Below, piece after piece: positions 2,519 through 53,243 of a stretch of 64,000 nt of DNA (position 1 is the stretch's first letter; each line of letters opens with the position of its first letter). The position numbers and the translations under genes are program-made. The stretch covers positions 1 through 64,000 of the IMG/VR virus record IMGVR_UViG_3300009080_000001. One strand, written 5' to 3'. The stretch comes from a virus. The notes beneath the pieces were generated by a model. The model did not search any database and was not told the DNA's origin. It was given only the letters and a program-made list of their open reading frames with translations.

Positions 2519-3784
2519 TTAAGCTACTTTGATGTTGATAAGAACACAAAGAGATGCTGGTCTAGCAGTAAATAATGCTTGATCAGTGTAACATCTCATT
2601 TCGATACCATGAGCGTTCTCAAGAAGCTCTAAGTACTCTTCACCATCTGGTCTTTTGAATGTTACTTCTTCAGAACCAATTCTCTTAAGATCTTTCTCAC
2701 AAGCTAAGTAAGAGTAACCTTCTTTTACGAAAGTAGAAGCGATTACTTTGATAGATCCGTTTTGTCCGTGGAACATGATTTCTCTTGATCCATTTTCTTG
2801 TTTAGCTGGAGAATATGAGCTATCATATTGTCTCTTAGCGTCGATTTCAGTTAATAGTGAGTTCCATTGCTTAGGGTTAACATAACAAGAAACTTCTTCT
2901 TCCATTAGACCTTTCTCAACCATTGCGGCGATACCTTCTTCGATTTTACCAAAAGAAAGAACAGCAGCGTTAGTAGTTGCATCAGTTCCAACTTCTACGA
3001 TAGACCCTTGAAAAAGAGGCTCTGCAGAGTTGTTGATTCCAAATAGGCTTGATGTTTCAGTTGCGATTCCGTGAATTCCTAAAAATTCATTTCTTACACC
3101 AGCGTTAGCAGCAGCACCTTTGAAAAAGATAACGTCGTCAGCTTGAATTTCAGCAGCACCTAAGTTACCAGCAGCTTTCTTAAGAGTAACTGATCTGTCA
3201 GCTAAAGAGTAACCTTCAACTTCGTAAGAAGCTACTAAAGAACCTGCAGAGAATACTTCAACTTCTGCATTAGATGTACCATTCCAGATACCTGCAGACC
3301 ATTCAGCTTCTTGAATTGAAACTGCTTCAGATGGAGCACCACCAGTAATATCAGTCTTAACTACACCAATTCCAGATTGTCCGTAGAACATTTGTACTTC
3401 TAATCTGTGGTATACTGATTTAAGCATGTTACCTACCATAAGGTCCATTGCTTTTTCGATTGCTTGCTTGTCAGAACCTGAACGAGATAGAGCACCGATA
3501 GAGATAGCAGATCTTAATACTAATTCTCTAGCTTTGATTGAAGCTTTTCTCATTTTGAATTCTTTAACGTCGTTAAGTGTAAAAAGAGATCCATCCTCTC
3601 CACCATAAGTAAATCCTGATTCTAAAGATAGGATAACTGGTTCATTGTAGCTATCTCCTACTTTCTTAGATGTGTCAAATTTTACTGCGTTGTAAAGTTT
3701 AACATGATCAGGTACTAATTGTTGTACTTTGTCAGCGTATCTTTCCTTAAAAAGACCGTTTAGCGTTGATACTTCGTTTGCCAT
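2519..3784 (-). CDS. Major capsid protein
   Basis: 421 aa after scaffold and portal; strong RBS, own promoter motif and terminator; HK97-like C-terminus. Confidence 0.8.
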   Translation of the reverse strand: MANEVSTLNGLFKERYADKVQQLVPDHVKLYNAVKFDTSKKVGDSYNEPVILSLESGFTYGGEDGSLFTLNDVKEFKMRKASIKARELVLRSAISIGALSRSGSDKQAIEKAMDLMVGNMLKSVYHRLEVQMFYGQSGIGVVKTDITGGAPSEAVSIQEAEWSAGIWNGTSNAEVEVFSAGSLVASYEVEGYSLADRSVTLKKAAGNLGAAEIQADDVIFFKGAAANAGVRNEFLGIHGIATETSSLFGINNSAEPLFQGSIVEVGTDATTNAAVLSFGKIEEGIAAMVEKGLMEEEVSCYVNPKQWNSLLTEIDAKRQYDSSYSPAKQENGSREIMFHGQNGSIKVIASTFVKEGYSYLACEKDLKRIGSEEVTFKRPDGEEYLELLENAHGIEMRCYTDQALFTARPASLCVLINIKVA

Positions 3785-5104: not shown

Positions 5105-5425
5105 TTAGTTTTTTTCGTGTTTCTCTTGAGTATAATCTTTAGAGCAGATACCAAAAGTCCTGTCTCTAGATTCTCTTTTTAAATTTACTCCGAAAGATTC
5201 TAACTTAGATCTTGCTGTTCTTTTTAAAACATTTAGATTTGTATATTGTTTACTTTTAAAAACAAATTCTTTTGTTCTTTCGTTTCTGATACCATAGATC
5301 ATCTCTTCAAGGTTAAGTACTATTTTATATTTAGCACCAGTACGTTCTGATACATACTGGTTCAATGAAATAATGCAATTATCTTTAGTCGGATGATCGA
5401 CGTATCTAATCCTGTTTCCAGCCAT
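5105..5425 (-). CDS. Hypothetical protein
   Basis: 106 aa, coupled to portal stop. Confidence 0.6.
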   Translation of the reverse strand: MAGNRIRYVDHPTKDNCIISLNQYVSERTGAKYKIVLNLEEMIYGIRNERTKEFVFKSKQYTNLNVLKRTARSKLESFGVNLKRESRDRTFGICSKDYTQEKHEKN

Positions 5426-7533
5426 TAGCTACCGCCACTGTTCTTAGCCATAAGTTCGGCTGGATTAGTTGGCTGAGGAGGTAGTGTACCATCGCTTACT
5501 CCAGCAGGTTGAGCTGGTTGTGGTAAGTTCTGTGGTCCTAAATTAGGGTCCATCATCTGAGCTGGTCCACCATCAGGCATATTAGTTCCTGCTGGTTGTT
5601 GTGGAGCAGGAGCGTTACCTTGAGGTCCACCCGGCTGTTGCGGAGGTGGAGCTAGTGGTTGCTCTCCTATGATAGATAAAATATTCGGATCAGTAGTCTG
5701 TAATAAATTAATATGTTCTTGAATATGATCTAGTACCGATTGAACTAGTTCCGGATCTCTTCTTAGCATATAGTCAGAAAGTACTGATCTATGTTCTTTA
5801 ATATGTAATGAGTGATGGTCAGAGAATATAGCGATAACTTCTTCATCTCTTACTAGAGCTTCGTTCTCACCTTTAATAGTCATCATCTCGTCCATCTTAC
5901 CTTCAGTTAAGTAGTCAAGATTACCAGTATTCATAACCATTAAATATTTCTCAGGACTATCAATAAGTCCCATCTGTAAAAGGTTCTCTGCTACTTGAGC
6001 ACGACCTGCAGTAGTTTGCATTAATGCGTTTCCAACATCAACAACAACTCTGTTAATAGATTTAATATCGTCTGACTTAAACTCTTTCATTTCGGTCGAG
6101 TTATTTAGTCCGGAAATTGCAGCAATTCTAGGAACATTTGCAAAGTCTTTTAATAAGTTAATTAGTCCAGTTCCAACGCTTTCTAATAATTGAATATAAG
6201 ATTGCTGAAGTCCAGATACAAACTGTAATGCTTGTGACTGTACTAATGCTAATGCGTTACCTGATCTTAATGATTGTTCTGGATTACCTCTTGCAACAGA
6301 GTTTACACCAGAAAGTGTTTCCATAGTTTTCTCAAGAAGTGACATCAGTTGATATACTTCTGGAGATGTCTTTACTAAATCTAGAGGTTCTGGTTTACCC
6401 ATTCCCGGATCGTATTCAATAAAGTTCATACCTTCTGAAACCTGTTCAACAGAAACTCCGTTTCCTCTTGGGTTTAGAATGTTTACAACACCAAATGCGT
6501 TAACATTTGTTGCAGCCGTAGAATAGAGACTATTCAGCATATCTTGAAGTGGTAACAAATCAAACATGTCTGTATAGCCATATGGTGTTCCCATAATTTC
6601 ACTTGGAGTAATTCGATGCACTGGCAAGTCTCTATACGGCATTACGGTATCTTCCATGATAGCATCAGCGTCAGCATAAAGAACATAACGTCCATTAGGC
6701 ATTGACTCTGTTCGCTTATGAAAAAATTCATAAACTGGGATATCTTCGGTTTGTTCAATCGGGTGCGAAAGAACTCTCCTACTTCTTTTTTCTTGTTTAT
6801 CTTTTGTGTCTTGGCTTAACAGTTCTTCTGCAAGTTCTGGGTACTTGGCAGCTAAATCGAACTTGTTAATAAATGATCTACAAAGAACCCAATCGTTCTT
6901 CATATAATCTTCTTTCGTAACATCAAATACTACGTCAAATGGTGAGAGTAATGTAAATTCTACATCTCCTTCATAAATAGGAAAAGGTTTGAGTGTTTCA
7001 CCCTTCTCTCCTAAAGGTTCTCCGTCTTCATCATAGTCGTGGATGTCTTCTTCATCAACGTCAACATAGTCATAAATCTTGCCTTTGGTACTATTCCACT
7101 CTAATTTAATGTATCCTGAACCCAGAACAATGGCGTACTCTACGGCCTTCTTTATGATTGTCTCAAGCTTCATTTCACGCATGTAATAGTCCAGAAGTCC
7201 ATTTCCGAGTTCAGCTTGTAGTAGTGATTTTCTATCTGTATTGATAGCTCTACACTGGAAGCTAGGTCGTGTGCTTGTTACCATAACGTGAATATGTCGT
7301 GCTAAATTTCTATAGTGATTTACGGCTAAGTTTACAAGTTCACCTTGTTCTCCGCCTGTAGATAAGAAATGACCCTTACCATAGTATTGACCGTAATAAG
7401 CTTTCCAAGACCTTTTGATCTTGTCAATATAATCCGTATCCATAACACCTTTAAACCAGTGTTGTGACTTTCCGATCAATGTTTCTACGCATTTATCCGC
7501 TTTCTCAGCAGCGAAGTATTTCTCTCTACTCAT
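5425..7533 (-). CDS. Portal protein (P22-like)
   Basis: 702 aa after terminase; GSGYIKLEW, SPFDVVFD, LSGVNSVARG motifs; Pro/Gln-rich tail. Confidence 0.85.
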   Translation of the reverse strand: MSREKYFAAEKADKCVETLIGKSQHWFKGVMDTDYIDKIKRSWKAYYGQYYGKGHFLSTGGEQGELVNLAVNHYRNLARHIHVMVTSTRPSFQCRAINTDRKSLLQAELGNGLLDYYMREMKLETIIKKAVEYAIVLGSGYIKLEWNSTKGKIYDYVDVDEEDIHDYDEDGEPLGEKGETLKPFPIYEGDVEFTLLSPFDVVFDVTKEDYMKNDWVLCRSFINKFDLAAKYPELAEELLSQDTKDKQEKRSRRVLSHPIEQTEDIPVYEFFHKRTESMPNGRYVLYADADAIMEDTVMPYRDLPVHRITPSEIMGTPYGYTDMFDLLPLQDMLNSLYSTAATNVNAFGVVNILNPRGNGVSVEQVSEGMNFIEYDPGMGKPEPLDLVKTSPEVYQLMSLLEKTMETLSGVNSVARGNPEQSLRSGNALALVQSQALQFVSGLQQSYIQLLESVGTGLINLLKDFANVPRIAAISGLNNSTEMKEFKSDDIKSINRVVVDVGNALMQTTAGRAQVAENLLQMGLIDSPEKYLMVMNTGNLDYLTEGKMDEMMTIKGENEALVRDEEVIAIFSDHHSLHIKEHRSVLSDYMLRRDPELVQSVLDHIQEHINLLQTTDPNILSIIGEQPLAPPPQQPGGPQGNAPAPQQPAGTNMPDGGPAQMMDPNLGPQNLPQPAQPAGVSDGTLPPQPTNPAELMAKNSGGS

Positions 7534-8056
7534 GTCTATTTCCTTTCTTAATATTTAAACTTGCTTCTAACACCTGTAGATTTTCCCAAACGTGGAGCCC
7601 ACAAACATCTTTACCTTGTAGTGGCACTATATGATCTACGTGGTATTTTAAACCAGTTAATTCTTCTAGTTTCCTAGCACCTATGTAAACCTTTTTTATC
7701 TTCTCACATTCAGACCAATCAGGAGTTGCTTTTAATTTTAAAGATCTCCTTTTAGCACAGTTGTTATTTATACTTCCTCTGTTTTGTTTCGACCATTCTT
7801 TGGTCAAATAAGCTTGTTTTTCTTTATTGTTATCTCTCCATTTCTTGCTAGATCTGTTAACAATATCTGGGTTAGTCTTTTGATACTCTAAATTCTTTTT
7901 TATTATAACTTCTTTATTTTTTTGATAATATGCTTTTTTGTCTGCTTTAGAACATTCTTTACATCTAGACTCTCTTCCATATTTACCACTTTTTAGTTTA
8001 TGAAACTCTAATATGCCTTTTTCTTCTTTACAAATACTACATACTTTAGCTTCCAT
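7526..8056 (-). CDS. HNH endonuclease
   Basis: N-terminal CxxC..CxxC; YHVDHIVPLQG..CGLHVWENLQVL..N. Confidence 0.9.
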   Translation of the reverse strand: MEAKVCSICKEEKGILEFHKLKSGKYGRESRCKECSKADKKAYYQKNKEVIIKKNLEYQKTNPDIVNRSSKKWRDNNKEKQAYLTKEWSKQNRGSINNNCAKRRSLKLKATPDWSECEKIKKVYIGARKLEELTGLKYHVDHIVPLQGKDVCGLHVWENLQVLEASLNIKKGNRHE

Positions 8057-8114: not shown

Positions 8115-9587
8115 CTATTTTTTTTCAAGTTTTAGCAGTTTCTTAATGAAATCAGCCGCTTGTGAGGCGTTTTTAGTCTTAAATTTAGGACTCATGAAGG
8201 TATTTTTGTTAATATCTAGTCCATAGTTCTCTGGAAACGGGTTTGTACCTAATCTTACGTTCCTAACTAAGTATATAAGCGCATCTAAAGCATCTCCATG
8301 TGATCTTAATAGTCCAGCAGAGTCGTTTCCTTTCAAATGCTTGAATTTACCTGTAAATGTTCCTTGTTTAGTATAGTGCCATTGAGTATATTTAAGATGG
8401 TATATAAGATTCTTACATCTTGGGTGTATTATGATCCTTTCAGATTCTACCCATCTTCTTACAGTATCAACAGCTTGCTCTTTATTATGTTTTTCAGTAG
8501 GCATGAAGTTCATACCATAAAACCTAGATAAATCGTTTATAAGCTTAAGGTCATTATCCATTACTCTTAAATAAGGCTTCTGCTTATCTCCGAGGGCCGT
8601 AACAAACCTCATCTCTTCTTTAACCATTATTTCTTTATGTAATTTGTCCGTTGTTAGTTCTGGACCATTAATAACGTATTCATCTGTAATTACTAGCTTA
8701 TTGAGCTTCTTATCATAGTACGAGAATAAGAATACAGTTAGATCGTGAAATCCAACATCTCCAGAGGTATAGAACTCACAATAATCTGGAACTTCCATAT
8801 CCTTAACTACGGACTCTTCTACGGCCGCAAATTCTGGGACTACGTTGGCTTCAGATACATTTGGAATCTCACACAAATACTCGCATCTAAATTTGACATT
8901 CTTCTCTCCACCCGGATACCTAGCTACAATCCTAGCTCTCTGCTCTTCAGAAACCATAGGCGATGTAGTGTAGTCAAACTTTAAAAGCTTTCCAGCAGCT
9001 TCTAGAGGGTTCACAAAGAACTCATGAAAGTCATGGTTCGGATCTTTGTCGTTTGGTGTGGATGCTAAATATATTTTACCACCAGTTGTATCGGTAGTAG
9101 GGGCAAGTACTGAATATACTACAGTCTCTAGCTCATCCATAAATCCTGCCTCATCACATATACATAAATCAGCCGATCCCCCACGGAGGTTATCGTAGTT
9201 TCCATTATCTGTACCTGCGACTTGTATTTCAGATCCATTAGGAAATAGCCACACCTTCTCTTGAGTCTTCCACTCCGGTTTCATATCCTCCGGACAGTTA
9301 GCTATGATCTCACGTATTCTAGGCTTTATAACCCTCTCAACCATTTTCTGTTGAGGACATGCATATTTTACAATAGCTCCGGGTTTTAGTAAGCAGGTTT
9401 CAATTGCCATAACACATAGAGTATACGACTTACCATACTGTCTGGATATCAGACATGCAGATATATCATCACCAGTATTGTTGAAATGTTTATAGATTTC
9501 TTTTTGATTACCCTTAAGTTTCCAAGAAAGTATACCTTCCCTCCAAAGAGCGTCAATTGCTTCTTCTTCGGTCATTTTCTTAGCCAT
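8115..9587 (-). CDS. terL: Terminase large subunit
   Basis: Walker A SRQYGKS, LRG..DLCICDEA Walker B, ASTP coupling motif, nuclease acidic residues (GDVG, DALDALIY). Confidence 0.92.
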   Translation of the reverse strand: MAKKMTEEEAIDALWREGILSWKLKGNQKEIYKHFNNTGDDISACLISRQYGKSYTLCVMAIETCLLKPGAIVKYACPQQKMVERVIKPRIREIIANCPEDMKPEWKTQEKVWLFPNGSEIQVAGTDNGNYDNLRGGSADLCICDEAGFMDELETVVYSVLAPTTDTTGGKIYLASTPNDKDPNHDFHEFFVNPLEAAGKLLKFDYTTSPMVSEEQRARIVARYPGGEKNVKFRCEYLCEIPNVSEANVVPEFAAVEESVVKDMEVPDYCEFYTSGDVGFHDLTVFLFSYYDKKLNKLVITDEYVINGPELTTDKLHKEIMVKEEMRFVTALGDKQKPYLRVMDNDLKLINDLSRFYGMNFMPTEKHNKEQAVDTVRRWVESERIIIHPRCKNLIYHLKYTQWHYTKQGTFTGKFKHLKGNDSAGLLRSHGDALDALIYLVRNVRLGTNPFPENYGLDINKNTFMSPKFKTKNASQAADFIKKLLKLEKK

Positions 9588-11633: not shown

Positions 11634-11706
11634 AATATACTGAATAATATTTTATTTGTCAAATACTATTTTAATCCTTGACAGTACTTGTACTAACTGT
11701 TATCTT
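11634..11706. promoter_or_regulatory. Divergent sigma70-type promoters
   Basis: Minus: TTGACA (11662-57)-17-TATATT. Plus: TTGACA (11678-83)-17-TATCTT with ATG at 11712 (likely leaderless). Confidence 0.7.
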
Positions 11707-11711
11707 AGAGT

Positions 11712-11915
11712 ATGGCTAGGAAAAAGAAGAAAAAAATAGTTGAGACTCTGGGTCACGTAGTTGTGGCTCAGATTCCCATGATAATAACATTTGACGAAGA
11801 TCATGTAGAATTTGTTGCAGATTATTTAGAATCGGCTATGAATAGATCCTACGAGATAATAGACATGTTTGGTGATCTAGGGGGAGATTTTGATCCATTT
11901 GACGACGAGGGGTGA
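11712..11915 (+). CDS. Hypothetical protein
   Basis: ORF directly after promoter. Confidence 0.55.
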   Translation: MARKKKKKIVETLGHVVVAQIPMIITFDEDHVEFVADYLESAMNRSYEIIDMFGDLGGDFDPFDDEG

Positions 11916-12433: not shown

Positions 12434-12720
12434 AAGCAATAAAAGAATTATTCCTAATCTGCGACATAGAATCTGATGATAATTCAGTAGGTTGGAGACG
12501 TAGAAGAGATGCTATGGAGCAATGGGTAGAGAGGTATTTGTCTACGGTAGAGACTCAGCAAAGTGTATTAAATCCTAATGTTTTCGAATCAGAATTTATG
12601 GATTTTATTAAAGAGTCTATAGCAAAAAAGTTGGCTGAGGACTTGACAACCTCCACCAAATATGAGATAACTGATAAGAAGATAAAAGCTAAACTGGTGG
12701 TGTTAAATGGCAACAAGTAA
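12430..12720 (+). CDS. Hypothetical protein
   Basis: Overlapping start/stop coupling. Confidence 0.6.
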   Translation: MKAIKELFLICDIESDDNSVGWRRRRDAMEQWVERYLSTVETQQSVLNPNVFESEFMDFIKESIAKKLAEDLTTSTKYEITDKKIKAKLVVLNGNK

Positions 12721-12997
12721 TAGATATCCAATAGTTAGGCGTAATAATCTCAACGTAATGATAATTAGAACAGAAGGAAATGGTGACAATTTGGACTTTA
12801 TAAGCTTTGTAGAAACTGACGATGGTATTAAATATGAAGATACAAGTGGTCATAGAATGCCTTTAAAGGATATAATTATAGAATCTAATAGCGGAACTTT
12901 TGGCCTAGAGAGCGTTGTTAAAACTAGACTAGCAGAAAAAATGTGCAAGGTACTAGGGGAAACTGAGAACTATTATATTATTAAGGGAGAGCAGTAG
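12707..12997 (+). CDS. TRLARK-box protein
   Basis: VVKTRLAEKMCK at C-terminus. Confidence 0.7.
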   Translation: MATSNRYPIVRRNNLNVMIIRTEGNGDNLDFISFVETDDGIKYEDTSGHRMPLKDIIIESNSGTFGLESVVKTRLAEKMCKVLGETENYYIIKGEQ

Positions 12998-13203
12998 TGG
13001 GAATGGGAACTATAAGAGTACCTAGAGATGAAGAAATACCTATATACAAAACGGTAAATGATACTAGGCTCGCTCGTAAAATGTTCCCGGATTTTACTGA
13101 TAATAAAGATGGAACCTTAAGAATAATAACTGGTTACGGACCGGAGCCTGTTATAGTAGGTTCAGAAAAGGGATTTACATATATAGGAACGCCAAAAAAA
13201 TGA
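12997..13203 (+). CDS. TRLARK-box protein with capsid-like peptide
   Basis: VNDTRLARKMFPD followed by EPVIVGSEKGFTYIG. Confidence 0.75.
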   Translation: MGMGTIRVPRDEEIPIYKTVNDTRLARKMFPDFTDNKDGTLRIITGYGPEPVIVGSEKGFTYIGTPKK

Positions 13204-13469
13204 GAATACCACCAAGAGCTAAGAAATCACAAGAGATTATAGACCAAATGGTTAACTGGTTGAACTATTATATGGGAACTAGGCCCGAATTTAAGGACTT
13301 TATCAGAAATGATATCAAATACTTAGAAGAATACCTATCAGAAATTAGTGAAGAGCATAAAGTTCACAATATTAGATTTGCTACTAAGTTAAAGAGTCTT
13401 TGGAAGTGGGAATTAGAGGAAAAAGAAAGAGAAATCAAGCAATTAAAGGCGGAATTGGATGAAAAATAA
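13200..13469 (+). CDS. Hypothetical protein
   Basis: Coupled ORF. Confidence 0.6.
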   Translation: MRIPPRAKKSQEIIDQMVNWLNYYMGTRPEFKDFIRNDIKYLEEYLSEISEEHKVHNIRFATKLKSLWKWELEEKEREIKQLKAELDEK

Positions 13470-13950
13470 GAAAATAGGTCAGGGATTAGGGACACAGATC
13501 GATGAAAGGTCAGGAAACGCTAGAGCTTTGGCTATGTCGCAACAATTACAGCAAATGGGAAACCTTTCTGGTCAGACACAATTAGATGTTCTTTACCAAA
13601 AAAGAATGGCTGAGTATGAGAAACAAAAAATGGAATATGAAAATCAAAAAAGACAACATGAGATGGTAAAAGAAGAAGCACTTAGTAGATTAGACGAAGT
13701 ACTAGAAAATTCTGGAATACCACTAAAAGGATCTGATTATTTTAACATATATACCGATATATTCACAGAGGTAGACGCTATAAGATGTTTTGGTAAGAAT
13801 TATAATCCTAAAGAGGTTTTTAATGAAGTATTTACAAAGTATATGAATAATAACTACGATGAAATAACAGATACTAGGCTGGCAAGAAAGATGTATCCAG
13901 ACGCTAGGCCTAATAAAGACGGTAAGTTATACGTGAAAAAGGAAAAATAG
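13459..13950 (+). CDS. TRLARK-box protein with portal-like peptide
   Basis: RSGNARALAMSQQLQ near N-terminus; ITDTRLARKMYPD at C-terminus. Confidence 0.75.
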   Translation: MKNKKIGQGLGTQIDERSGNARALAMSQQLQQMGNLSGQTQLDVLYQKRMAEYEKQKMEYENQKRQHEMVKEEALSRLDEVLENSGIPLKGSDYFNIYTDIFTEVDAIRCFGKNYNPKEVFNEVFTKYMNNNYDEITDTRLARKMYPDARPNKDGKLYVKKEK

Positions 13951-14235
13951 TTGAAAAATAAGCGTAGAATAGAAATATACCCAACAAATAGAATGGCAGA
14001 ACACGTAATACGAGAATTCCACGATAAGAATGCGGAATTCGTATCATTCTTCGACCTTGGAATGAAAACACTATGTTACAAAGGCACATATATAGGATTC
14101 AGAGGTGAAACATACTCCAGAAGACTAGAAGGTTTACAGTTTGATGAGCTATATGTCCACCCAGATTGTAAATATAGGGGAGTTTATATCTCAAGAGCTA
14201 TTGACAACGGTGCAAAGATAGTGTATAAAATATAA
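13951..14235 (+). CDS. Truncated terminase-ATPase-like protein
   Basis: YPTNRMAEHVI ... LEGLQFDELYV ... GAKIVY parallels TerL motifs. Confidence 0.5.
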   Translation: MKNKRRIEIYPTNRMAEHVIREFHDKNAEFVSFFDLGMKTLCYKGTYIGFRGETYSRRLEGLQFDELYVHPDCKYRGVYISRAIDNGAKIVYKI

Positions 14236-14248
14236 AAGGAGTTAAATA

Positions 14249-15055
14249 ATGATAAAAAGAGATATAAATATGTTAGAGTATCTATGTAAAGTTAGCCCAA
14301 AAGAATTTACAAGAAAAACGAGAGAAAGCGGGCCTATAAGAACATATTTCTACAGAAAATGGATATATTCTCCGATGGGAGGTTTCGAAACATGGGACAC
14401 AATGGCAGAAGTTAATCTAGAAAAATATAAAGTTACATACTATAACGGATGGGGGAAGAGGTAAATATGAAAAAATTTAAAGTATTATGGGAAGAGAGAG
14501 TTGAGAAATCTGTGTGGATTGAAGCCTCCTCTGAAAAAGATGCTGTAGAAAAACACAATGAAGGCGAATATAGTAATGACTCAGTAAATGAAGAGTGGTT
14601 AGGATTCGACGACTCTTACGTTGTAGATAGCAAGGATATAGAATAATGTTCGACTATATGGTAAAAGTACTGCCGAACGGTAACTTATTAGTGCGTGACA
14701 GCCATTCTAAGACATCCGAGGCTATTAAGGCAAGTGAGATATCGGATTATTTCCAAAAGGCTTTAAAAGAGCAATTAGAGGCTGAGAAAGAGAATGACCA
14801 GAAACATAAGGATGTTCGAGAGGGAGCCTTTAAATTATGAAAAGAATAGAAAAAATGATGACATACAGGAATGATCCGTATTCTAATAATATAATAGAAG
14901 ACGATTATCAGTTAGTAGGTATAGATTATATAGTCTCTGCTTGGAATTGGGACCACTCTAAATCAAACGACGAATATTACTGTGTAAAATTAGCTCATTT
15001 TGGAAGTATTGTCCACATAAAGAAGGAAGACCTAGATAAAAAGGTAAAAAAATGA
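14249..15055 (+). CDS. Four small hypothetical ORFs (14249-14464, 14467-14646, 14646-14840, 14837-15055)
   Basis: Tightly coupled ORFs with RBSs. Confidence 0.55.
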
Positions 15056-15381
15056 ATAAAACATATACAAGAATGCAAAAACAAGTAGTTAACGACACTA
15101 GGTTAGCTAGGAAGATGTATCCAGACTTCACTGATAATGAGGATGGTACTATCACAATTGAGGTTGAAGTAATCTCAGACGGATTCGGGTCTGGTGGTAT
15201 ATTGACTGCTACAGACGTACAAGATGCAATAAATGATATGCTGACCAAAGGCTTTGCTGCGCCATCAGAAATCATAGTAAACCCTAAACAATACGCAGAG
15301 TTACAGAAGTTAATAGATCCAGATGACATGGATATTAAGGTTAGTAACTACTGTCCTGATGACAAGGTATATATAAAATAG
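15052..15381 (+). CDS. TRLARK-box protein with capsid-like fragment
   Basis: N-terminal VNDTRLARKMYPD; IVNPKQYAELQKLID. Confidence 0.75.
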   Translation: MNKTYTRMQKQVVNDTRLARKMYPDFTDNEDGTITIEVEVISDGFGSGGILTATDVQDAINDMLTKGFAAPSEIIVNPKQYAELQKLIDPDDMDIKVSNYCPDDKVYIK

Positions 15382-15884
15382 GAGAATAAGTAGTGGGAAT
15401 AGCTGTAGGTATATTGTTAATAGTTAATATGTTTTGGATAATGCCGACATTATATAGAATTGAGAAGTTATTGGAGAGAAAATGAAAGGACATTACGAAG
15501 ACGATACTGACGCAAAGAGATTATTATTAACTATATTCTGTGTAGCCGCTATTTCAGGGCTATTAAGCGCATTTATTTATTAGGTGTATTATGATTGAAA
15601 ATGTTATTAAAAATATTTGGATTACAACTAGGATATTAGCTGGAGCCTTGACAATACTGGCGGCTATTAATCTATCAAATCAAGATATAATAGGAACATT
15701 ACCATTTATAAGTATTATTATATGTGGATTCTTTACAATAGCTAAACAACATGATTAGGTGTATTAACATAAATATACCCATATCTGTTTTCTGACACTA
15801 CTTTGACCAATACAACTGACTTAGAACCACATACCCCCCTACCCCCTAAATATATTTTGTTTACATAGAATATACGCACCTATC

Positions 15885-15996
15885 TTGGCATGGATCTTGC
15901 AGTAGCAATCGGAGTGCCACTCTCCACTGTAAATAATATTTATTGTATCGGCTATAAGACTTGGCACGGTACTTGCAGATGCATACCATATGCCAA
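15885..15996. promoter_or_regulatory. Four sigma54 (-24/-12)-like motifs in two convergent pairs
   Basis: TGGCAY-N5-WTGCW at +15886, -15919, +15962, -15995. Confidence 0.65.
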
Positions 15997-16444
15997 CACA
16001 TAGTGCCAACTATATATGGCAGCTCAGAATGCTCTGTGTCTGCGTTTGTGGGTATAGTGCTTATGATTGTATAGGTTAATTTCGGAGGCTTTACAGAGGC
16101 TATTCTGTACGTGTGAGGAGTCAAGGTTATTTATTAGATAGTAACATTGTTTATTAGCGAATTATTATATTGGTAATATGCGGATAGTTAGCGTATACTA
16201 GTATTAGGAAATGACACAACGTATTACGGGAGTTATATATGTTAATAGAGTGGATAGTCGGAGTATTATATGCAGTACTGAGTATGTTTGGTAAGGTTGT
16301 TTATATGATTGAAACGTATGTAAGTAGTGATAATTTAAAGTAATTTATTAATTCATCTAGTTATAGGAGGTGATAAACAGTATCTATTTAATATTTAATA
16401 CATCAAATACAAGTCTTAATTCTAAGCGGTCTAATTTAACCTAG

Positions 16445-16770
16445 TTATAAAGCCCCGATCATGGGGCGATCTACTTCAATAAGTTAATACATTTAAAAGG
16501 TTTGAAACAAGGCATTACTAAACTTTACTAGTATATAAGGACACTAGCCGAAAAGTAATGCTAAATAGATTATGTTTATGCCGATACGATAGTATCACTT
16601 TCTCTATTTGGCTTTTGCTGTAAAGCAATTTAGTTTAGAGGTTGAAGCGTTCCGCTTGAGTCTTTTAACAATCGTTTCTCAAGTACTCGTTATCTTAATC
16701 TGATGTGTTCCGAGCCTAGTCGTCATTCTTTTCGCAAAGCCGTGACATTTTTTAACGGTCTTCATTCTCT
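16445..16770 (-). ncRNA. Candidate late structured ncRNA
   Basis: Late motif upstream, many helices, terminator-like hairpin at 3' end, no substantial ORF. Confidence 0.5.
16447..16467 (-). terminator. Terminator-like hairpin
   Basis: GCCCC-ATGATC-GGGGC followed by TTTAT. Confidence 0.5.
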
Positions 16771-16774
16771 TATT

Positions 16775-16789
16775 ATATAGTTGTTAAAT
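16775..16789 (-). promoter_or_regulatory. Late promoter-like motif, copy 5
   Basis: Exact 15-mer with no convincing CDS downstream. Confidence 0.7.
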
Positions 16790-17170
16790 ATATTGTACGT
16801 ATCTTTTCCGTAACAGGTATTTATTTTCATTATTTCAATGATTACGGTTACTTAGTCTTATTAAAATAGCTACAATAAAATTACATGATGCCTGACTATA
16901 CTCTCCAGTTAGATACAGATATAATCCTAAACCTACATTAAGTAAAAATATTATATATTCAAATTTTTTCATAAATAAAAATTCCTTTATTAAATAGTCC
17001 CCAGAAGTCATCACAAATCGGGGGACTAAATAAGTTTAGTTGATGCGGTAGGCTTTACGCATCTTTGTCCAGTTGCCTACTCTAATAATATATCAAAATT
17101 ATAGGATTCAATCAAGAGCTAAATTAGCAAGTGTAAATATTACAATCGGTAAAAATTACATACTTTCATG

Positions 17171-17349
17171 AGGAATATACGCAACTGCCATAGATAGTTG
17201 GCTGTTCAGATTAGCTCAGGATTCATTTAAAAGTTTTTTGAAGGTGGTTATACACAGAACATTTAAAGAGCTTAGAAGCATGATTCTGTTACGATTAAGC
17301 CTATGAATAGTATTTATTTAGGGATTTTTTACAAGGAATATACGCAACT
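17171..17349 (+). repeat. 16-bp direct repeat AGGAATATACGCAACT (17171-17186, 17334-17349)
   Basis: Exact match; partial third copy near 15868. Confidence 0.7.
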
Positions 17350-17510
17350 AAAGAAAAATTAAGTTGACTAAATAAAATTAGTTGTTGTCAAGCTTTTTCT
17401 TGGGATTGTAAATATTACCTATCTAATTTTTAGATCATAGCTATCTAATTATTATATTTGTGTTTATGACACGATATGTTATTCTAGTATTAGAAAAGGA
17501 GTTAACAAAA

Positions 17511-23656: not shown

Positions 23657-25558
23657 ATGAAATTGACTACTGATAACAAAACTGAAGACTTTGGACACAA
23701 GAAATTTAAGTTCAAGATCGACGAGAAACATGCCTTTAAAGCTATATGGGCATTGATTAATCTATATAAGTATAAGATCCAAACTCCAGTTCAAGAGGTT
23801 ATATCGAACGCTAGGGATGCCCACAGAGAAGTAGGCAAGCCAGATCATACTTTTGATATAAAGGTAACAGATACAGAGTTTATCGTTAGAGACTACGGTA
23901 GTGGTATTGATCCAGTAAAGGCTGAGAATATTTTTTGCTCTATTGGCGAGAGTACTAAGACAGGCGATAACGGTCAGACAGGCGGATTCGGTATTGGTGC
24001 AAAAAGTCCTCTAGCATACACTAAACAGTTTGAAATGATTAGTTATGTAGACGGTACTAAGTATCATTACTTCATTGCTAAAAATGGTGAAATGTTAGAT
24101 ATGAACTTAATCAGCACAGAGAGTACTAAAGCTAAAAACGGTACTAAGGTTATTATCCCTATTAAACAAAATACAGGATACTACAGAAACGAGTCTGATA
24201 AAAAGAGTTTTATTAAAGCAGTTGATAGGTGTTGTTATTTTTGGGAAAATAGACCTAATTTTAACCACGAAATAGAGCCTCTAAAGCTGTTTAAAATAAA
24301 AGGTAAGTCTAACTATGCGTTTCATAATGCAAACATCGTAGACGGCAATCTCGTAGTTGTGGACGGTATCCCTTATAATGCTAATACTAATCAATGGAAC
24401 TATAGCGGAAGTAGAGTAGCATTTTTCAATACTGGGGACTTAAGGATTCATGAGACTAGAGAAAGATTAGCAGATAATCCAGACGATAGTGCTTATAATA
24501 TGGATAAAGTTAATGAAGCAATGGATTATATTAAAAACCATATGGACGTTAAACTTAATGATTATATTGATAAAGATAGTATCTTTAAAAGTCTTAAAGT
24601 ATTAAGTGATTTTGCTATACCTTTTAATTATAGACATGGTAACTATCGGTTTAAAAACAGATTCATTGAGCTAGAGGGGTATGGTAAAAAATTCACTGTA
24701 TATACTTCTAAATCAGGTGGTAGGTATCCATATAATTATAGATATAGAAAAGAAGATCAAAGTAGACTGAACTATAATGTCGAGGTATTTTATGATAATA
24801 CCGGAGATAGTGTTCAAAAAGTTAGTCGTAGAGTAAAAGGTTACTTAACACAATTTGTTGAGAATAAAGAGAATAAAACTGTATATGTTACTACTAATAA
24901 ACAGATAGCTAATATTTTCGGAGCAAAAGACTTAAGTACTTTAGAAGTGCCGAAAGTTAATAGAACTGGAGTTAAAAAACAAAATGAGCAGATAACTATT
25001 ACAGAATTATATTGTTATGGTCAGAGTAGAATATATAAAAAACTTGATGATATTGTTAGTAAGTATATTTATTTAGGATTTAAAGAAGATATTAGTGAAA
25101 CAATGAGATCTTTTTTAGATAGAAAAGGATATAGAGTCTGTAAACTTTCAAAAGATAATATTGAAAAAGTTACAGGGCATGGAAAATTTACAGAGTATCA
25201 TAATTTTGTTGAAAATTACAAATTGACTCAAGATGAAATAGACGGTATTTATTATTCAAGTATCAGGAGATATAACTTTAATGTAAATTTTACAGAGTTA
25301 CTTGACAGTAAAATAAAAAGATACAAAGAAATTGCAGATCAATATAAAAGATGCGACAGTTATGGTGTGCCAGTTTCTCTTTATACAAAAGAAGTTGAGG
25401 CTACTATAGAAAAAATAAGTGCTGAGAACGCTGAGATTATCCATATAAAGGATTATATTAGCGGAGAGTACCCTATGTTAGGTCACGGCAAAGACGTTAA
25501 TACGGAGTATATCAACGCCATTTACAGCTATAGGAAAAATTTACATGGTGAAAAATAA
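23657..25558 (+). CDS. rIIA-like protein with HSP90/GHKL ATPase domain
   Basis: EVISNARDAH, DYGSGI, GGFGIGAKSP. Confidence 0.8.
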   Translation: MKLTTDNKTEDFGHKKFKFKIDEKHAFKAIWALINLYKYKIQTPVQEVISNARDAHREVGKPDHTFDIKVTDTEFIVRDYGSGIDPVKAENIFCSIGESTKTGDNGQTGGFGIGAKSPLAYTKQFEMISYVDGTKYHYFIAKNGEMLDMNLISTESTKAKNGTKVIIPIKQNTGYYRNESDKKSFIKAVDRCCYFWENRPNFNHEIEPLKLFKIKGKSNYAFHNANIVDGNLVVVDGIPYNANTNQWNYSGSRVAFFNTGDLRIHETRERLADNPDDSAYNMDKVNEAMDYIKNHMDVKLNDYIDKDSIFKSLKVLSDFAIPFNYRHGNYRFKNRFIELEGYGKKFTVYTSKSGGRYPYNYRYRKEDQSRLNYNVEVFYDNTGDSVQKVSRRVKGYLTQFVENKENKTVYVTTNKQIANIFGAKDLSTLEVPKVNRTGVKKQNEQITITELYCYGQSRIYKKLDDIVSKYIYLGFKEDISETMRSFLDRKGYRVCKLSKDNIEKVTGHGKFTEYHNFVENYKLTQDEIDGIYYSSIRRYNFNVNFTELLDSKIKRYKEIADQYKRCDSYGVPVSLYTKEVEATIEKISAENAEIIHIKDYISGEYPMLGHGKDVNTEYINAIYSYRKNLHGEK

Positions 25559-25636
25559 ATGTTGCGTAGAGTTAAAAAGTAGAGTATATTAATTATAGAA
25601 ACTAAGTTGTTCTTAACAAACAGGAGGATAGAACAT

Positions 25637-26818
25637 ATGAAACTAACACAAATACCACAAGCCGCAAAGGTTTGTTTCAAGAGTAAAGCAGCTACATTAT
25701 GCCTAGTAGGAGTATCTGGATCTGGTAAGACAAGTATCTGGGGACAAACTTATAAGGAACTAGGATTTGAAAATTATATTATCCTAAGACCTGCATTACT
25801 AGCTGATGCAGCAGATTTAATCGGTCTACCTGACTTTGAGATTATCGAGAAAGGTGGTAAGGCAGTTAAGACTACTGCATTTATGCGACCTAAATGGCTA
25901 CCTTTTGAAGGTGATAATTGTTTGATTGTTATTGATGAGATTAACAGAGCAACTAAGGACGTATCAAACGCATTGTTTGGACTGATTGAGTCGGAAGCCC
26001 CATTCATTGGTGAGTATAAACTTCCCGAAGGTTGTAAGGTAGTAGCAACGTGTAATCCGCCTACGGATAACTATGCAGGAGTACTAGACTTTGCAGATAG
26101 TGCATGGAGTTCAAGACTTAACTTTGTTAAGGTTGCACCAAGCTTAGAAACGTATACAAACTACGGTAGAGCTTCGGAAACTGTTAGTAACGTGATGTTA
26201 GACTTCCTAAATAAGAATGAAACTTTCTTTGGAACTAGCGGAGACTTTGATACTGATATGTTTTTTACAGACGATAGTGAAGTTAAAGAGACTAATACAA
26301 GATCATTCTCAAAGGCATCGGCTATTCACGATACTGCTAAAGAGTTAGGCGTTGATAGAAATGTTACTTTTGAGTTAATAAAAGGAGTCGTTGGTACGGA
26401 ATTTGCAACAGCATTTTTAAACTTTGCTGATACTTATAGTAATATCGTAACAGTTGATGATCTACTTACAGATCCAGAGGCGCATACTAGATTCGATTAT
26501 ACGGCTCTCAGTGGTATCGCTAAGGTACTTCAAGACCTTAAGCATAAGTTAGGTAAGGGCGAAGTTGAAGAGGCTCAGATCCCGAATATAGCCCCTTTCC
26601 TTAAGCAGATCCCATTAGATACTCTTAAGGGATTTGTAGTGTACTTAGTAAAGGAAAATAAGGACGAGAATGGTGCTTTAATGACGACATTCGCAGAAGC
26701 TTTAATTGACGATGATGAGATTAACGAGAAGTTAGACCTAGTTATGTCAGATGAAAGTACTGAGGAGCTTATTGATTCTGACGAATCTGGAGAGGAGTCT
26801 GAAAATGAAGATAACTAA
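25637..26818 (+). CDS. MoxR-like AAA+ ATPase
   Basis: GVSGSGKT, IVIDEINR, ATCNP, SRL arginine finger. Confidence 0.85.
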   Translation: MKLTQIPQAAKVCFKSKAATLCLVGVSGSGKTSIWGQTYKELGFENYIILRPALLADAADLIGLPDFEIIEKGGKAVKTTAFMRPKWLPFEGDNCLIVIDEINRATKDVSNALFGLIESEAPFIGEYKLPEGCKVVATCNPPTDNYAGVLDFADSAWSSRLNFVKVAPSLETYTNYGRASETVSNVMLDFLNKNETFFGTSGDFDTDMFFTDDSEVKETNTRSFSKASAIHDTAKELGVDRNVTFELIKGVVGTEFATAFLNFADTYSNIVTVDDLLTDPEAHTRFDYTALSGIAKVLQDLKHKLGKGEVEEAQIPNIAPFLKQIPLDTLKGFVVYLVKENKDENGALMTTFAEALIDDDEINEKLDLVMSDESTEELIDSDESGEESENEDN

Positions 26819-27728: not shown

Positions 27729-28976
27729 ATGAGTGAAGAAAAGAAACAACCAACAGCATTAGAAGTAGCACAAGGTAGAACTAGAATCGAGTTATTACTT
27801 ACGAAGTTATATAACCACCCGACAGATAGATTCTATGCACATTTATTCTTCCATGTAGATAGAAGAGTAGATAACGCAACGTGTCCAACAATGGGAGTTG
27901 GCATGAAAGGCGGAAGGATTCAGATGGTATATAATACTGAGTTCATTAAGCAATATAGTGACGAGGTTATTACTGAGATTCTTAAGCATGAATGTATGCA
28001 CCTTATTAACGATCATATTAGTAGAGGTAGAGGTGCTAAAGAGAAGAATATGACTAAGCACAAGATGGAAAATATTGCCCAAGATTGTGCTATTAATCAA
28101 TCGTTAAATGGTGCAATTATCAAGGAAATTGGTGGTGTAGATTTAGATAGCTTTAGGAAGCTCTTAACGCATCAACCAGAGGACTTTATACTTGAGGCAG
28201 GTATGACCTCAGATTATTATTATAAGCTCTTAGAACAGGAAAAGCAGGATCGTGAGGATGCAGGAGAAGGCGACCAAGAGCAAGGTGAAGGATCACTAGG
28301 TCAACAGCTAGGTGACTTAGAAATGGACGATCATGGTCAATTTGGAGAAATGGACGCATTAGATCAAGCTATGTTAGACGAAAAGATTAAGCAAGCTGCT
28401 GAGGACGCTAGAGCTAGTGGAGCAGGAAACCTACCAAGTGAAGTAGAGGAAATGTTAAAGCTTAGAAAGAAACCTAAAGAGAATTGGAAGAGGTTACTTA
28501 GACAATTTATTGGTGGTGGTGTTAGGTCTGATAAAAAGAAAACAAGAAGTAAACGTAATAGACGTTACGGGATTAAGTTTTCAGGAAACAAAAAGGACTA
28601 TGTTGCAAGGATATTAGTAGTACTAGATACATCAGGAAGTATGTACGGTGATAGAACTGACAAGGTACTGAATGAAATTTACGGTATCTGGAAAGCTAAC
28701 CCATCAACTAAGCTCGACATTGTTGAGTGTGATGCTCAGATCCAAGACGTATTTGAGTACGATGGTAAGGACAAATTTGCCATTACAGGGCGTGGAGGAA
28801 CTAACATGACTCCTGCATTAGAGTATGCTGATAAACACAAGTACGACGGTGTTATAATGCTTACAGACGGTGAATTTTGGGAGACTTTCAAGAATCATAA
28901 GACTCCTAGTTTATGGGTAATTGCAGGTAATCCAAGTTATACGTCGCCAATTGGTAAGACGGTACATTTAAAGTAG
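27729..28976 (+). CDS. Metallopeptidase-like + VWA domain protein (DUF2201 type)
   Basis: HECMH zinc motif; DTSGS MIDAS; GRGGT; LTDG. Confidence 0.85.
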   Translation: MSEEKKQPTALEVAQGRTRIELLLTKLYNHPTDRFYAHLFFHVDRRVDNATCPTMGVGMKGGRIQMVYNTEFIKQYSDEVITEILKHECMHLINDHISRGRGAKEKNMTKHKMENIAQDCAINQSLNGAIIKEIGGVDLDSFRKLLTHQPEDFILEAGMTSDYYYKLLEQEKQDREDAGEGDQEQGEGSLGQQLGDLEMDDHGQFGEMDALDQAMLDEKIKQAAEDARASGAGNLPSEVEEMLKLRKKPKENWKRLLRQFIGGGVRSDKKKTRSKRNRRYGIKFSGNKKDYVARILVVLDTSGSMYGDRTDKVLNEIYGIWKANPSTKLDIVECDAQIQDVFEYDGKDKFAITGRGGTNMTPALEYADKHKYDGVIMLTDGEFWETFKNHKTPSLWVIAGNPSYTSPIGKTVHLK

Positions 28977-41582: not shown

Positions 41583-43955
41583 GTGAAAGAACGTAAACTA
41601 GTAATAGTTGATAATATAAAGAAATTAGCAGAAGCTATAACACATATAAATACTTACGATATATTAGCATACGATATAGAAACTACTGGACTTATTCCTA
41701 CTAAGGAAAAGGTTATAGGGTTCTCAGTATGCGGTAAAGTAGGTGAAGCATATTATATTCCACATTTAACTTGGGATACTACCAAAAATAAACTAGTCGA
41801 AGTATTCAGCTTCAGTAAAATATCCTCCATTTTAAATTCGTTAAAAGGTAAAGAGTTACTGATGTGGAACGGTAGTTTCGACGTTAGATTCACCAGAGAT
41901 TATTTCGATATAGACCTTACAGAAGAATTATTCGCAGATATTATGTTAATGAAACATACAGTAGAAGAAGAGGGTCAATTTAGCTTAAAAGGCTGTGCAA
42001 TCCAGTACCAAGAAGAGATTGGACTAGATGTAGCAGAAGACGCTAACAAAGAGCAGATAGCCTTAAAAGAGAACGTAGCTAAGAATGGCGGTACAACTAC
42101 TAGAGCTAAGTACGAGATGTATAAGGCTGATCTAGACGTTATGGGTGTGTATGCCGCAGCCGATGCAGACCTTACATTAAGACTTGCAAACCTATTCAGA
42201 GAAAAGCTTGAAAAAGAGGAATTAGAGGACTTCTTTTATGATGAAGAAGTTATGCCTTTATATAAGTATGTAACAATGACAATGGAATCTAATCCAGTAC
42301 AATTAGATATTGATAAACTTAAATACTACAAACATAAGATAGAGCAAGATATAGTTAAATTACATGATGCTATTGTTGCAGACTTATTAACAAGCGTTAA
42401 AGTACAAGCATGGTTAGAAGAAGTAGCTAAGACTAAATATCCGCCAAAACCTACTGGAAACTACGCTCAAAGAGTGGTAGAGAAATTCGGACTAGATTTA
42501 CCAAAATCAGCATCAGGGAAGTACAGTATTTCCAGAAAGAATGTTGAGAAATTACCAGATAGTGACGCTAAAAGCTTCTTATTAAAAGAGAGTAATATAG
42601 AGCCGGAATTTAAGGTAAAAGATACAAGGTTAGCACGTAAGATGTATCCGGGCTGTGTAGAGAAAGATGGTTGGTTAGTACCTGCTCAAGATATGTCAAG
42701 TATTTCAGTTGAATTATGGGAAGAACATAATGGTGGTAAAATCAATATCTCATCTAAAAAGCAAATGGGTGAAATAGTATTTAATTACATGAAAGTTAAG
42801 CCTTTAACTAAGACCTTAAAAGGTGCGCCACAATTTAACGATGCTTTAATTCAATATTTAGCTGATAATCAGTTTTCTTGGGCTAATGACCTTAGTGACT
42901 ACAATAAGCTAATTAAGATCAAGTCAGCATATATCGATAGATTCTTGGATAATAACCAAGATGGTAATTATTACTTTTATTACAAACAACATGGAACATT
43001 ATCAGGACGATATAGTTCTGACGCACAGCAGCTACCAAGACCTAAAGAAGATGGAGAACTATCACCATTAGTACTTGAATATAACAATGCTATTAGGTCG
43101 TTCTTTGTCGCTGGTGAAGGTCGTAAGTTTATTGATGCCGATTATGAGTCGTTAGAGCCACATGTATTTGCACATGTATCAGGTGATGATGGGTTGAGAA
43201 ATATCTTCCGTAAAGGTCATGATTTTTATAGTACTATTGCTATTCAAACAGAGAAGCTTGGGGAATTTAGTGCGGATAAGAAGTCCGAAAGTTACCTTGG
43301 GAAATTAAACAAACCATTACGCCAGAAGGCTAAGGCTTATAGTCTAGGCGTTCCATATGGCATGACACCTTATGCCCTAGCTAAGACATTAGAAGTGGAT
43401 GAGAAGGAAGCTAAGAAGCTATATGATGGGTATTTAGACGGGTTTCCAGAGCTTAAGAAGTGGATGCAGAAGAGTAAGAGAGATGCACAGTACAAAGGAT
43501 TCGTTAAGACGCAAACTGGACGTATTAGGCACTTAGATAGGGTTAAAGAGCTACATGCTGAACATGGTGAGAAATTACTTAATTTTAAATACCGTAAAAA
43601 GCTTGAAAAACAAGTAGCTAAGAAACTTGGTGGATTTGAAGCATCTAAAGAAGTTAAAGGTATGTACCTTGATTATAAGAATGGTATAAATAATAGCCGC
43701 AACTTTCAGATTCAAGGATTATCGGCTAGTATTGTAAATAAATCCATGATACTGATTATGCAGGATTTTAGGGACGAGAATATAGACGGTTACGTATGTG
43801 CAACAGTACATGATCAGATTATTGTTAACGTATCTGATTTAGATCTTGACAGAGCTATAGAAATAGTGCAATATAGAATGACAACGGTTGTTGAGCTATC
43901 AGTTGATCTGAAAGCTCCGCCAGAAATTAGCGATAATTTTAGAGATGGACATTAA
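41583..43955 (+). CDS. polA: DNA polymerase family A with 3'-5' exonuclease and internal TRLARK box
   Basis: DIETTG exo I; SGRYSS; DADYESLE motif A; KAKAYSLGVPYG motif B; HDQ motif C. Confidence 0.95.
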   Translation: MKERKLVIVDNIKKLAEAITHINTYDILAYDIETTGLIPTKEKVIGFSVCGKVGEAYYIPHLTWDTTKNKLVEVFSFSKISSILNSLKGKELLMWNGSFDVRFTRDYFDIDLTEELFADIMLMKHTVEEEGQFSLKGCAIQYQEEIGLDVAEDANKEQIALKENVAKNGGTTTRAKYEMYKADLDVMGVYAAADADLTLRLANLFREKLEKEELEDFFYDEEVMPLYKYVTMTMESNPVQLDIDKLKYYKHKIEQDIVKLHDAIVADLLTSVKVQAWLEEVAKTKYPPKPTGNYAQRVVEKFGLDLPKSASGKYSISRKNVEKLPDSDAKSFLLKESNIEPEFKVKDTRLARKMYPGCVEKDGWLVPAQDMSSISVELWEEHNGGKINISSKKQMGEIVFNYMKVKPLTKTLKGAPQFNDALIQYLADNQFSWANDLSDYNKLIKIKSAYIDRFLDNNQDGNYYFYYKQHGTLSGRYSSDAQQLPRPKEDGELSPLVLEYNNAIRSFFVAGEGRKFIDADYESLEPHVFAHVSGDDGLRNIFRKGHDFYSTIAIQTEKLGEFSADKKSESYLGKLNKPLRQKAKAYSLGVPYGMTPYALAKTLEVDEKEAKKLYDGYLDGFPELKKWMQKSKRDAQYKGFVKTQTGRIRHLDRVKELHAEHGEKLLNFKYRKKLEKQVAKKLGGFEASKEVKGMYLDYKNGINNSRNFQIQGLSASIVNKSMILIMQDFRDENIDGYVCATVHDQIIVNVSDLDLDRAIEIVQYRMTTVVELSVDLKAPPEISDNFRDGH

Positions 43956-53018: not shown

Positions 53019-53243
53019 ATGATCGGTTGGAAAAACGTAAAAGATACAAGATTAGCTAGAAAGATGTTCCCTGACTTTAAAGAGTCCGAAAAAGACGGGT
53101 ATATTATGATCCCAGAACCTATAGATTTAACTAATACTACGTTTGCTGAAAGAGCACATATAGCTGAACAATTGTTACAATACGGACTTATTACTACAAA
53201 AGAAGAATATTTAAAAATAATTGATAATATCCAACAAAAGTAG
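53019..53243 (+). CDS. TRLARK-box protein with portal-like fragment
   Basis: N-terminal VKDTRLARKMFPDF; AERAHIAEQLLQYGLI. Confidence 0.75.
   Translation: MIGWKNVKDTRLARKMFPDFKESEKDGYIMIPEPIDLTNTTFAERAHIAEQLLQYGLITTKEEYLKIIDNIQQK

Follow-up and report, generated by a model that had tools for sequence, protein, structure and literature searches.

Why would a phage carry, among its early genes, small proteins that repeat short pieces of its own capsid and portal? The question is raised by an operon at positions 12997 to 15381 of the IMG/VR virus record IMGVR_UViG_3300009080_000001, a complete 84.76-kb record whose first 64 kb (positions 1 to 64,000) are here called the window. We show a conserved, accessory family of early genes in which a constant peptide module, the box (~28 residues; consensus V-K-D-TRLARKMYP, x6-8, DG-x-L-x-I), is joined to a brief stretch copied from a highly conserved part of a virion or packaging protein. 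Judged from the comparisons below, this pattern of mimicry is well above chance. The copied proteins and the genes that carry the copies are as follows.

2519..3784, minus strand: major capsid protein (MCP), HK97 fold; copied residues 47-62 (nt 3599-3646) and 276-325 (nt 2810-2959)
5425..7533, minus strand: portal, P22/SU10-like; copied residues 420-442 (nt 6208-6276) and 505-534 (nt 5932-6021)
8115..9587, minus strand: large terminase (TerL); residues 378-400 weakly like the g13951 family
12707..12997, plus strand: g12707, 96 aa, with a degenerate C-terminal box
12997..13203, plus strand: g12997, 68 aa; box at nt 13042-13128, tail EPVIVGSEKGFTYIG (nt 13144-13188) copying MCP 48-62
13459..13950, plus strand: g13459, 163 aa; N-terminal RSGNARALAMSQQLQQMGNL (nt 13507-13566) like portal 423-442, a coiled coil, and a C-terminal box (nt 13852-13938)
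13951..14235, plus strand: g13951, 94 aa, no box; family motif (Y)(V/I)HP(D/E)CK, weakly like IIHPRCKN of TerL 384-391
15052..15381, plus strand: g15052, 109 aa; box at nt 15076-15162, tail residues 52-102 (nt 15205-15357) colinear with MCP 276-325
53019..53243, plus strand: g53019, 74 aa; box at nt 53025-53111, tail residues 40-69 (nt 53136-53225) copying portal 505-534

Short copies of capsid and portal segments

The 107 early open reading frames (ORFs) were aligned with the MCP, the portal, and TerL by the Smith-Waterman method, with Gumbel p values taken from shuffled sequences, giving 321 tests in all. The best three pairs are formed by the only three box-first ORFs, namely, g53019 with the portal (p 1.7e-6, the best of the 321 tests), g15052 with the MCP (p 9.4e-5), and g12997 with the MCP (p 8.9e-4). 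The pair of g13459 with the portal ranks seventh (p 0.013) and is weak alone. When the box-free tails were compared with all 144 other proteins of the genome, the cognate was the top match for every tail (p 9.6e-7 for g53019 with the portal, p 1.3e-4 for g15052 with the MCP, and p 6.5e-5 for g12997 with the MCP), and the first 50 aa of g13459 likewise placed the portal at the top of the 144 proteins (p 4.2e-4). At the family level, hhalign returned E values of 1.7e-6 for the g53019 family against the portal, 2.4e-6 for the g12997 family against the MCP, 1.5e-5 for the g13459 family against the portal once a distant ortholog had been added, and 1.5e-3 (probability, 16%) for the g15052 family against the MCP, the weakest of the four. 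The tails are 50 to 60% identical to their cognate segments, and the identical residues are written with the same codon in only about half of the cases, which argues against a recent origin by DNA or gene conversion. In the boxless relative L017, 25 early ORFs (75 tests) gave nothing below p 0.013. The remaining high-scoring pairs between early and virion proteins of the window are coiled-coil or low-complexity matches. With shuffled controls, four of the five ORFs that the initial annotation had singled out thus match above chance: its capsid-like reading of g12997 and g15052 holds, as do its portal-like reading of g13459, its second portal segment in g53019, its observation that all of these ORFs but g13951 have the box, and the architecture that it described, a box fused to a short copy, for the MCP and the portal.

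The tail of g15052 gives three further, independent capsid signals, all of them sub-threshold (Pfam Linocin_M18, E 0.004; phrog_2263; a GP7 cluster of the Atlas), and it is colinear with a confidently modeled stretch of the MCP made of helix 277-289, strand 296-301, and helix 303-319. In the test for HK97 capsid family membership, it reached 16.8 bits with Linocin_M18 against a cut-off of 24.3, over ~50 colinear residues. As far as these alignments tell, the tail is a fragment-like copy and not a capsid protein.

The remaining ORF, g13951, had been described as terminase-ATPase-like, which our results do not bear out. It gave no significant match to its own TerL (p 0.11 to 0.12; hhalign E 0.18). 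A two-sequence profile of its family matched TerL 378-400 weakly (hhalign E 0.002, probability 13%), and its homolog in the relative L025 matched the same conserved motif with p 9e-5. This motif, RIIIHPRCKNLIYH, lies in the nuclease domain of TerL and not in the ATPase. The likeness of the g13951 family to TerL is, on these sequences, a lead only.

What is copied belongs to the most constrained parts of the cognate proteins. The MCP has no Pfam or PHROG family match; its AlphaFold2 model (pLDDT 66, with residues 1-104 at low confidence) resembles the VP1, SU10, and HK97 capsids and encapsulins with Foldseek E values of 2.6e-7 to 1e-4 and has the spine helix, P-domain, and A-domain by which membership in the HK97 fold was judged. 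The portal scores 50.1 bits with Pfam P22_portal (cut-off, 26.1), which places it in the P22/SU10 type, 23 bits with SU10_portal, and E 2.5e-26 with phrog_156. When sequence windows were ranked by conservation among 27 to 31 relatives, MCP 48-62 was the most conserved 15-mer of the whole MCP, portal 427-446 and 501-520 were the first and third of the portal 20-mers, the TerL motif was the third TerL 20-mer, and the A-domain piece of the MCP stood at about the 86th percentile. Judged from the secondary structure of the model and general knowledge of the HK97 fold, MCP 47-62 would be the ascending strand of the E-loop, and MCP 276-325 would be the helix-strand-helix core of the A-domain; by general fold knowledge, portal 420-442 would run from the last part of the tunnel loop into the first part of the long wing helix, and portal 505-534 would be the start of the crown.

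Relative L017, on the same contig as L040, has inteins in TerL (L017:7968-10499; 843 aa), inserted between FRCEYL and C, and in the portal (L017:10562-13684; 1040 aa), inserted between GNALMN and STAGRAQ, within the segment copied by g53019. Since inteins target invariant sites, the latter is an independent sign of strong constraint on that segment. In the IMG/VR relatives L023 and L025, the MCP is 87 to 91% identical to that of the window and portal residues 495-539 are identical, with only 42% identity in TerL; by these sequence comparisons, the two genomes are mosaic and their packaging gene has been swapped.

Orthologs were found for all four mimic ORFs (for g12997, P0005, P0006, P0157 from L011, P0205, and P0219; for g15052, P0002 to P0004 and P0244), and in them the cognate-like residues are kept or strengthened, down to ~40% identity. 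The ortholog P0157 of g12997 reads EPVILGLESGFTY where the MCP reads EPVILSLESGFTY; the ortholog P0202 of g13459, with KSGSALALVKSQALH, is identical to the portal, RSGNALALVQSQALQ, at 11 of 15 positions; and P0172, with VEVNVNLNNYKSAEKLEMANMLLNFGVIKTPEDYLNVV, is colinear with the portal segment VVDVGNALMQTTAGRAQVAENLLQMGLIDSPEKYLMVM. The conservation of the mimics in relatives, by which the initial annotation had proposed to judge them, is therefore borne out for all four. Between the window and L011, g12997 has a dN of 0.156 with saturated synonymous sites, which indicates, on this pair of sequences, purifying selection, and the cognate segments are invariant between these two paired genomes. 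Together with g12707, g12997 forms a joint insertion between g12430 and g13200. The mimic genes look accessory in these sequences because g12997 is missing from the close relatives L013, L017, L023, and L025 and because the boxless relative has no head mimics in its early flank.

The combination of box and virion-derived tail recurs. One box subtype, YPDF.DN.DGT.TI, is common to g12997, g15052, and the relatives' proteins P0226 and P0250; the portal-type g53019 carries a sister subtype. P0226 and P0250 are box-first proteins with tails of ~70 residues that have a C1q-like signature (G.Y..P.sG.Y.I ... KGD.V.I) and match, with p ~5e-4, the C1q-like tips of two fiber-like proteins of this genome, located outside the window:

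81077-83179: fiber-like protein, tip like the P0226 and P0250 tails
83206-84708: fiber-like protein, tip like the P0226 and P0250 tails

One box subtype with three different virion-derived tails points to selection for the combination of box and virion epitope.

Other origins for these genes were examined and rejected. The g53019 tail has a weak hit to Pfam SHOCT_2 (14 bits against a cut-off of 24; E 0.059), and its portal match is far stronger. A remnant of an intein or split intein in the box and g53019 was judged by Hint blocks F and G ending in HN, by C, S, or T at +1, and by an extein starting from the insertion site; the orthologs are without the conserved HN, the box proteins gave no Hint family hit, and the similarity to the portal runs upstream of the insertion site in P0172. 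A match of g15052 to a tail-fiber repeat (p ~0.01 to 0.02 among 38 to 144 tests) is not kept in orthologs. Finally, a decayed duplicate of the head module would not explain fragments that are not colinear with TerL, portal, and MCP.

The box module

About 26 copies of the box are found in the genome, all of them in the early arm and none in the virion arm. Its usual site is the C terminus of proteins of 80 to 115 residues, whose N-terminal domains are diverse, many of them starting with FKVGD. It is also carried by putatively Tudor/SH3-like, helical, and coiled-coil proteins and by the DNA polymerase. Since the copies differ from one another in synonymous codons for Arg, Leu, and Ala, the box is kept at the protein level, and a DNA-level repeat or promoter was rejected on the same ground. 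In the AlphaFold2 model of the box protein g55026 (pLDDT 74, highest over the box), the box forms a strand, a short helix, and a beta-hairpin. The N-terminal part of that model resembles a Tudor/SH3-like barrel (VIA Z 6 to 6.7 to Tudor, chromo, and KOW domains; best Foldseek E 0.055), and these Foldseek and VIA matches are to generic small barrels only, a common arrangement. In Pfam and PHROG searches, neither the ORFs of the operon nor ten box proteins reached the curated cut-off of a family, and the Atlas search gave sub-threshold leads only.

When 1.84 billion representative proteins were searched exhaustively with a profile, only 203 box clusters were recovered. In IMG/VR, a pattern scan found the box pattern nowhere beyond this record, and the 33 related IMG/VR loci have divergent variants only, such as [ST]DLAKFMYP; in L023, the homologs of g13459 and g12707 carry [ST]DLAKFMYP...DGFIYVK (L023:2-475 and L023:725-1063, minus strand). 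As the search profile misses this divergent type, the box family is wider than the 203 clusters. Judged from these searches, the box is a lineage-restricted peptide module.

One copy stands inside a replication enzyme:

42603..42689, plus strand: box copy in the thumb insertion of DNA polymerase A

The insertion, ~115 residues long and with a full box (window 42390-42718), is flanked by the equivalent of Klenow helix H on one side and by the FNLSSTKQ-type motif on the other, where T7 has its thioredoxin-binding domain. As the box occurs at the N terminus, at the C terminus, and internally in the polymerase thumb, we infer that it is probably a position-independent docking module and not a terminal degron. 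An ssrA-like C-terminal degron is at odds with the N-terminal box of g12997, g15052, and g53019 and with the internal one of the polymerase, and the suggestion of the initial annotation that the box routes its cargo to degradation does not fit these positions.

The early arm encodes several possible box partners, namely, a ClpP-family protease (window 53300-54064), directly downstream of g53019, a MoxR-like AAA ATPase (25607-26818), a VWA/DUF2201 metallopeptidase-like protein (27729-28976), and a GHKL ATPase (23657-25558).

Possible roles of the copied segments

We propose, along the lines of the initial annotation and with a probability of roughly 0.3, that the mimics are candidate decoys for host defense sensors. 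Each tail would be a competitive mimic, occupying the site of whatever normally reads the invariant segment, and the box would tether it to a shared partner that binds boxes and that would also be docked by the box of the polymerase thumb. Being made early, the baits would pre-occupy host pattern-recognition sensors of the MCP, portal, and TerL without activating them. This proposal draws on the similarity, which is real, cognate-specific, and kept in orthologs, with g12997 under purifying selection; on the location of the genes, which a sigma70-like promoter precedes at the start of the early arm; and on their patchy distribution, typical of accessory arms-race genes. It also draws on the nature of the copied epitopes, which are invariant, as pattern-recognition sensors would be expected to read, and belong to the known sensor targets MCP, portal, and TerL: Avs1-4 read TerL and portal, and CapRel and Lit read the MCP. 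Lit is activated by Gol, a 29-residue linear peptide of the MCP, and is thus an example of a defense system that reads a linear MCP peptide. Tentatively, the whole could form a modular "self-epitope" counter-defense, with early baits of the phage's own capsid, portal, terminase, and, in relatives, fiber tip on a shared docking module, blinding Avs-, CapRel-, or Lit-like sensors.

Four points weigh against sensor decoys. Avs sensors recognize whole folds via large interfaces, so that a peptide of 15 to 30 residues may fail to bind them. A fragment that does bind a sensor could activate it instead of blocking it. The E-loop, the A-domain core, and the portal crown are, by analogy with known folds, subunit-contact elements, which would fit interference with assembly equally well. 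Lastly, the match of g15052 to the MCP is just moderately significant.

The data are fitted about equally by a second explanation, likewise tentative and already named as an alternative in the initial annotation, in which the tails act as dominant-negative assembly poisons. They would slot into subunit interfaces and, in co-infecting relatives or satellites, cap the MCP or portal or cause its mis-assembly; or else they would delay the phage's own assembly. The genes would then serve competition between phages or the control of timing. All of the well-supported tails map, by model and analogy, to elements that would be subunit contacts, and capsid-derived dominant-negative factors are established in animal virology (Fv1 and enJS56A1). 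The accessory and patchy distribution suits competition genes. Self-resistance would also predict two further observations: the g53019-family tails, GLI[TK]T.EEYL.II, are closer to the "ITT" portal type of other clades, GLITTPEKYLEIL, than to the phage's own "IDS" type, GLIDSPEKYLMVM, and the TerL-like motif of L025 is closer to the window-type TerL than to that of L025 itself, each of these comparisons coming from one paired genome. Nevertheless, early expression would risk self-harm, a single E-loop strand would hardly displace an intramolecular partner strand, and the TerL nuclease motif is no obvious assembly interface. Moreover, the group shows almost no variation in the cognate segments, which would make specificity for a competitor hard to achieve.

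It is unlikely that the tails are captured fragments without any mimicry, picked up from virion genes by a recombining box family that functions via the box alone. The promiscuity of the box, found on putatively Tudor/SH3-like, helical, and coiled-coil proteins as well as on the polymerase, would be in keeping with such captures, and so would the mosaic genomes with swapped TerL modules of L023 and L025. On the other hand, all four tails match the MCP or portal and none a replication protein, the residues that are invariant in the MCP and portal are kept in diverged orthologs under purifying selection, and at least four captures from the opposite-strand arm would be needed.

Less likely still, the proteins would be adaptors whose tails anchor on nascent heads or portals and whose box recruits box-tagged proteins or a hub, for cargo loading or localization. 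The ~22 further small box proteins would then be the cargo, the portal crown and tunnel loop are generally known to face the capsid interior, and encapsulins load cargo into HK97-fold shells by C-terminal tags; however, the genes for the would-be cargo belong to the early arm, the capsid has the E-loop on its outer face, and the box is also on the polymerase.

Chance similarity of short motifs, such as a SHOCT-like helix in g53019 or a generic beta-strand in g12997, is very improbable: the matches are short (15 to 50 residues), only that of g53019 is clearly significant after a genome-wide Bonferroni correction, and the g53019 tail has its weak SHOCT_2 hit, but the top 3 of the 321 tests are exactly the three box-first ORFs, each tail finds its cognate as the best of 144 proteins, the more distant orthologs P0172, P0202, and P0157 are more cognate-like, and the boxless control is negative.

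Known systems offer partial parallels. The recognition of Gol of T4 gp23 by Lit, of the MCP by CapRel, and of TerL and portal by Avs1-4 concerns, as here, conserved parts of the same three protein classes, and for Lit a linear MCP peptide of ~29 residues suffices; in those systems, however, the epitope lies inside a late protein and triggers defense, whereas here short copies are separate early genes on a common module. DSAD1, acting on DSR2, and Ocr are phage proteins that fill the ligand site of a sensor without activating it, as we propose for the tails, but to our knowledge no inhibitor of this type copies the sequence of the trigger that the phage itself makes, whereas the tails copy their cognate segments. 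Fv1, enJS56A1, and the satellite proteins Sid, CpmB, and Ccm are capsid-like or capsid-binding proteins that hinder the assembly of a related virus; these are whole domains encoded by a host or satellite, whereas the fragments here are short, phage-encoded, and share a tag. Poxvirus ankyrin/PRANC proteins and the cargo-loading peptides of encapsulins also combine a variable recognition part with a short constant docking motif that is repeated, although the box has no detectable similarity to the PRANC or encapsulin motifs. The thioredoxin-binding domain of T7 gp5 occupies the same thumb position as the box-bearing insertion, a likeness that is positional only, the polymerase insertion here having no sequence similarity to it.

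Full-text literature searches, one of them directed at decoys encoded by phages, turned up no such decoys of structural proteins. Provided that the tails do work as mimics, we know of no earlier case in which a phage encodes copies of its own conserved structural epitopes in the form of separate early proteins. Should the target be a host sensor, the tails would mark the linear pieces of capsid, portal, and terminase that immunity reads and would constitute a new evasion route; should it be a virion protein, they would represent a natural dominant-negative strategy by which phages compete. The tails also show where constraint is strongest in capsid, portal, and terminase, and the box would be a docking module so far undescribed, with the DNA polymerase, in its thumb, among the ~26 proteins per genome that carry it.

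Genome setting and neighboring genes

The ends of the record overlap by 123 bp, which indicates a circular assembly. Virion and packaging genes occupy the minus strand from 55.6 to 84.7 kb and on through 1 to 11.4 kb, and ~107 ORFs, mostly small, lie together with the replication genes on the plus strand between 11.7 and 55.3 kb. This early arm begins at 11712, and the two arms diverge at 11.4 to 11.7 kb, where the GC skew flips (near 11.5 kb) and where a back-to-back pair of near-consensus sigma70-type promoters is found at 11634-11706. ORF orientation, skew, and promoters agree with the earlier description of the operon as divergent from the packaging genes.

No near relative was found among GenBank phages, and no relative among the species-representative genomes. 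The group is common in marine metagenomes; 655 MCP homologs lie on contigs of 77 to 87 kb, and no RNA data set was listed among the sequencing runs that hold it. Downstream of g15052, a stretch of ~1.6 kb (window 15800-17400; GC 0.29) has no plus-strand ORF of at least 40 residues and no tRNA. In the packaging module, an HNH/EndoVII-like endonuclease gene (window 7526-8056) stands between TerL and the portal; it is not at that place in L009 and L011 and stands elsewhere in other relatives, and because its position varies in this way, it is probably a free-standing homing endonuclease. In L009, the divergent early operon opens with a gene for an ankyrin-repeat protein (L009:720-1409, minus strand).

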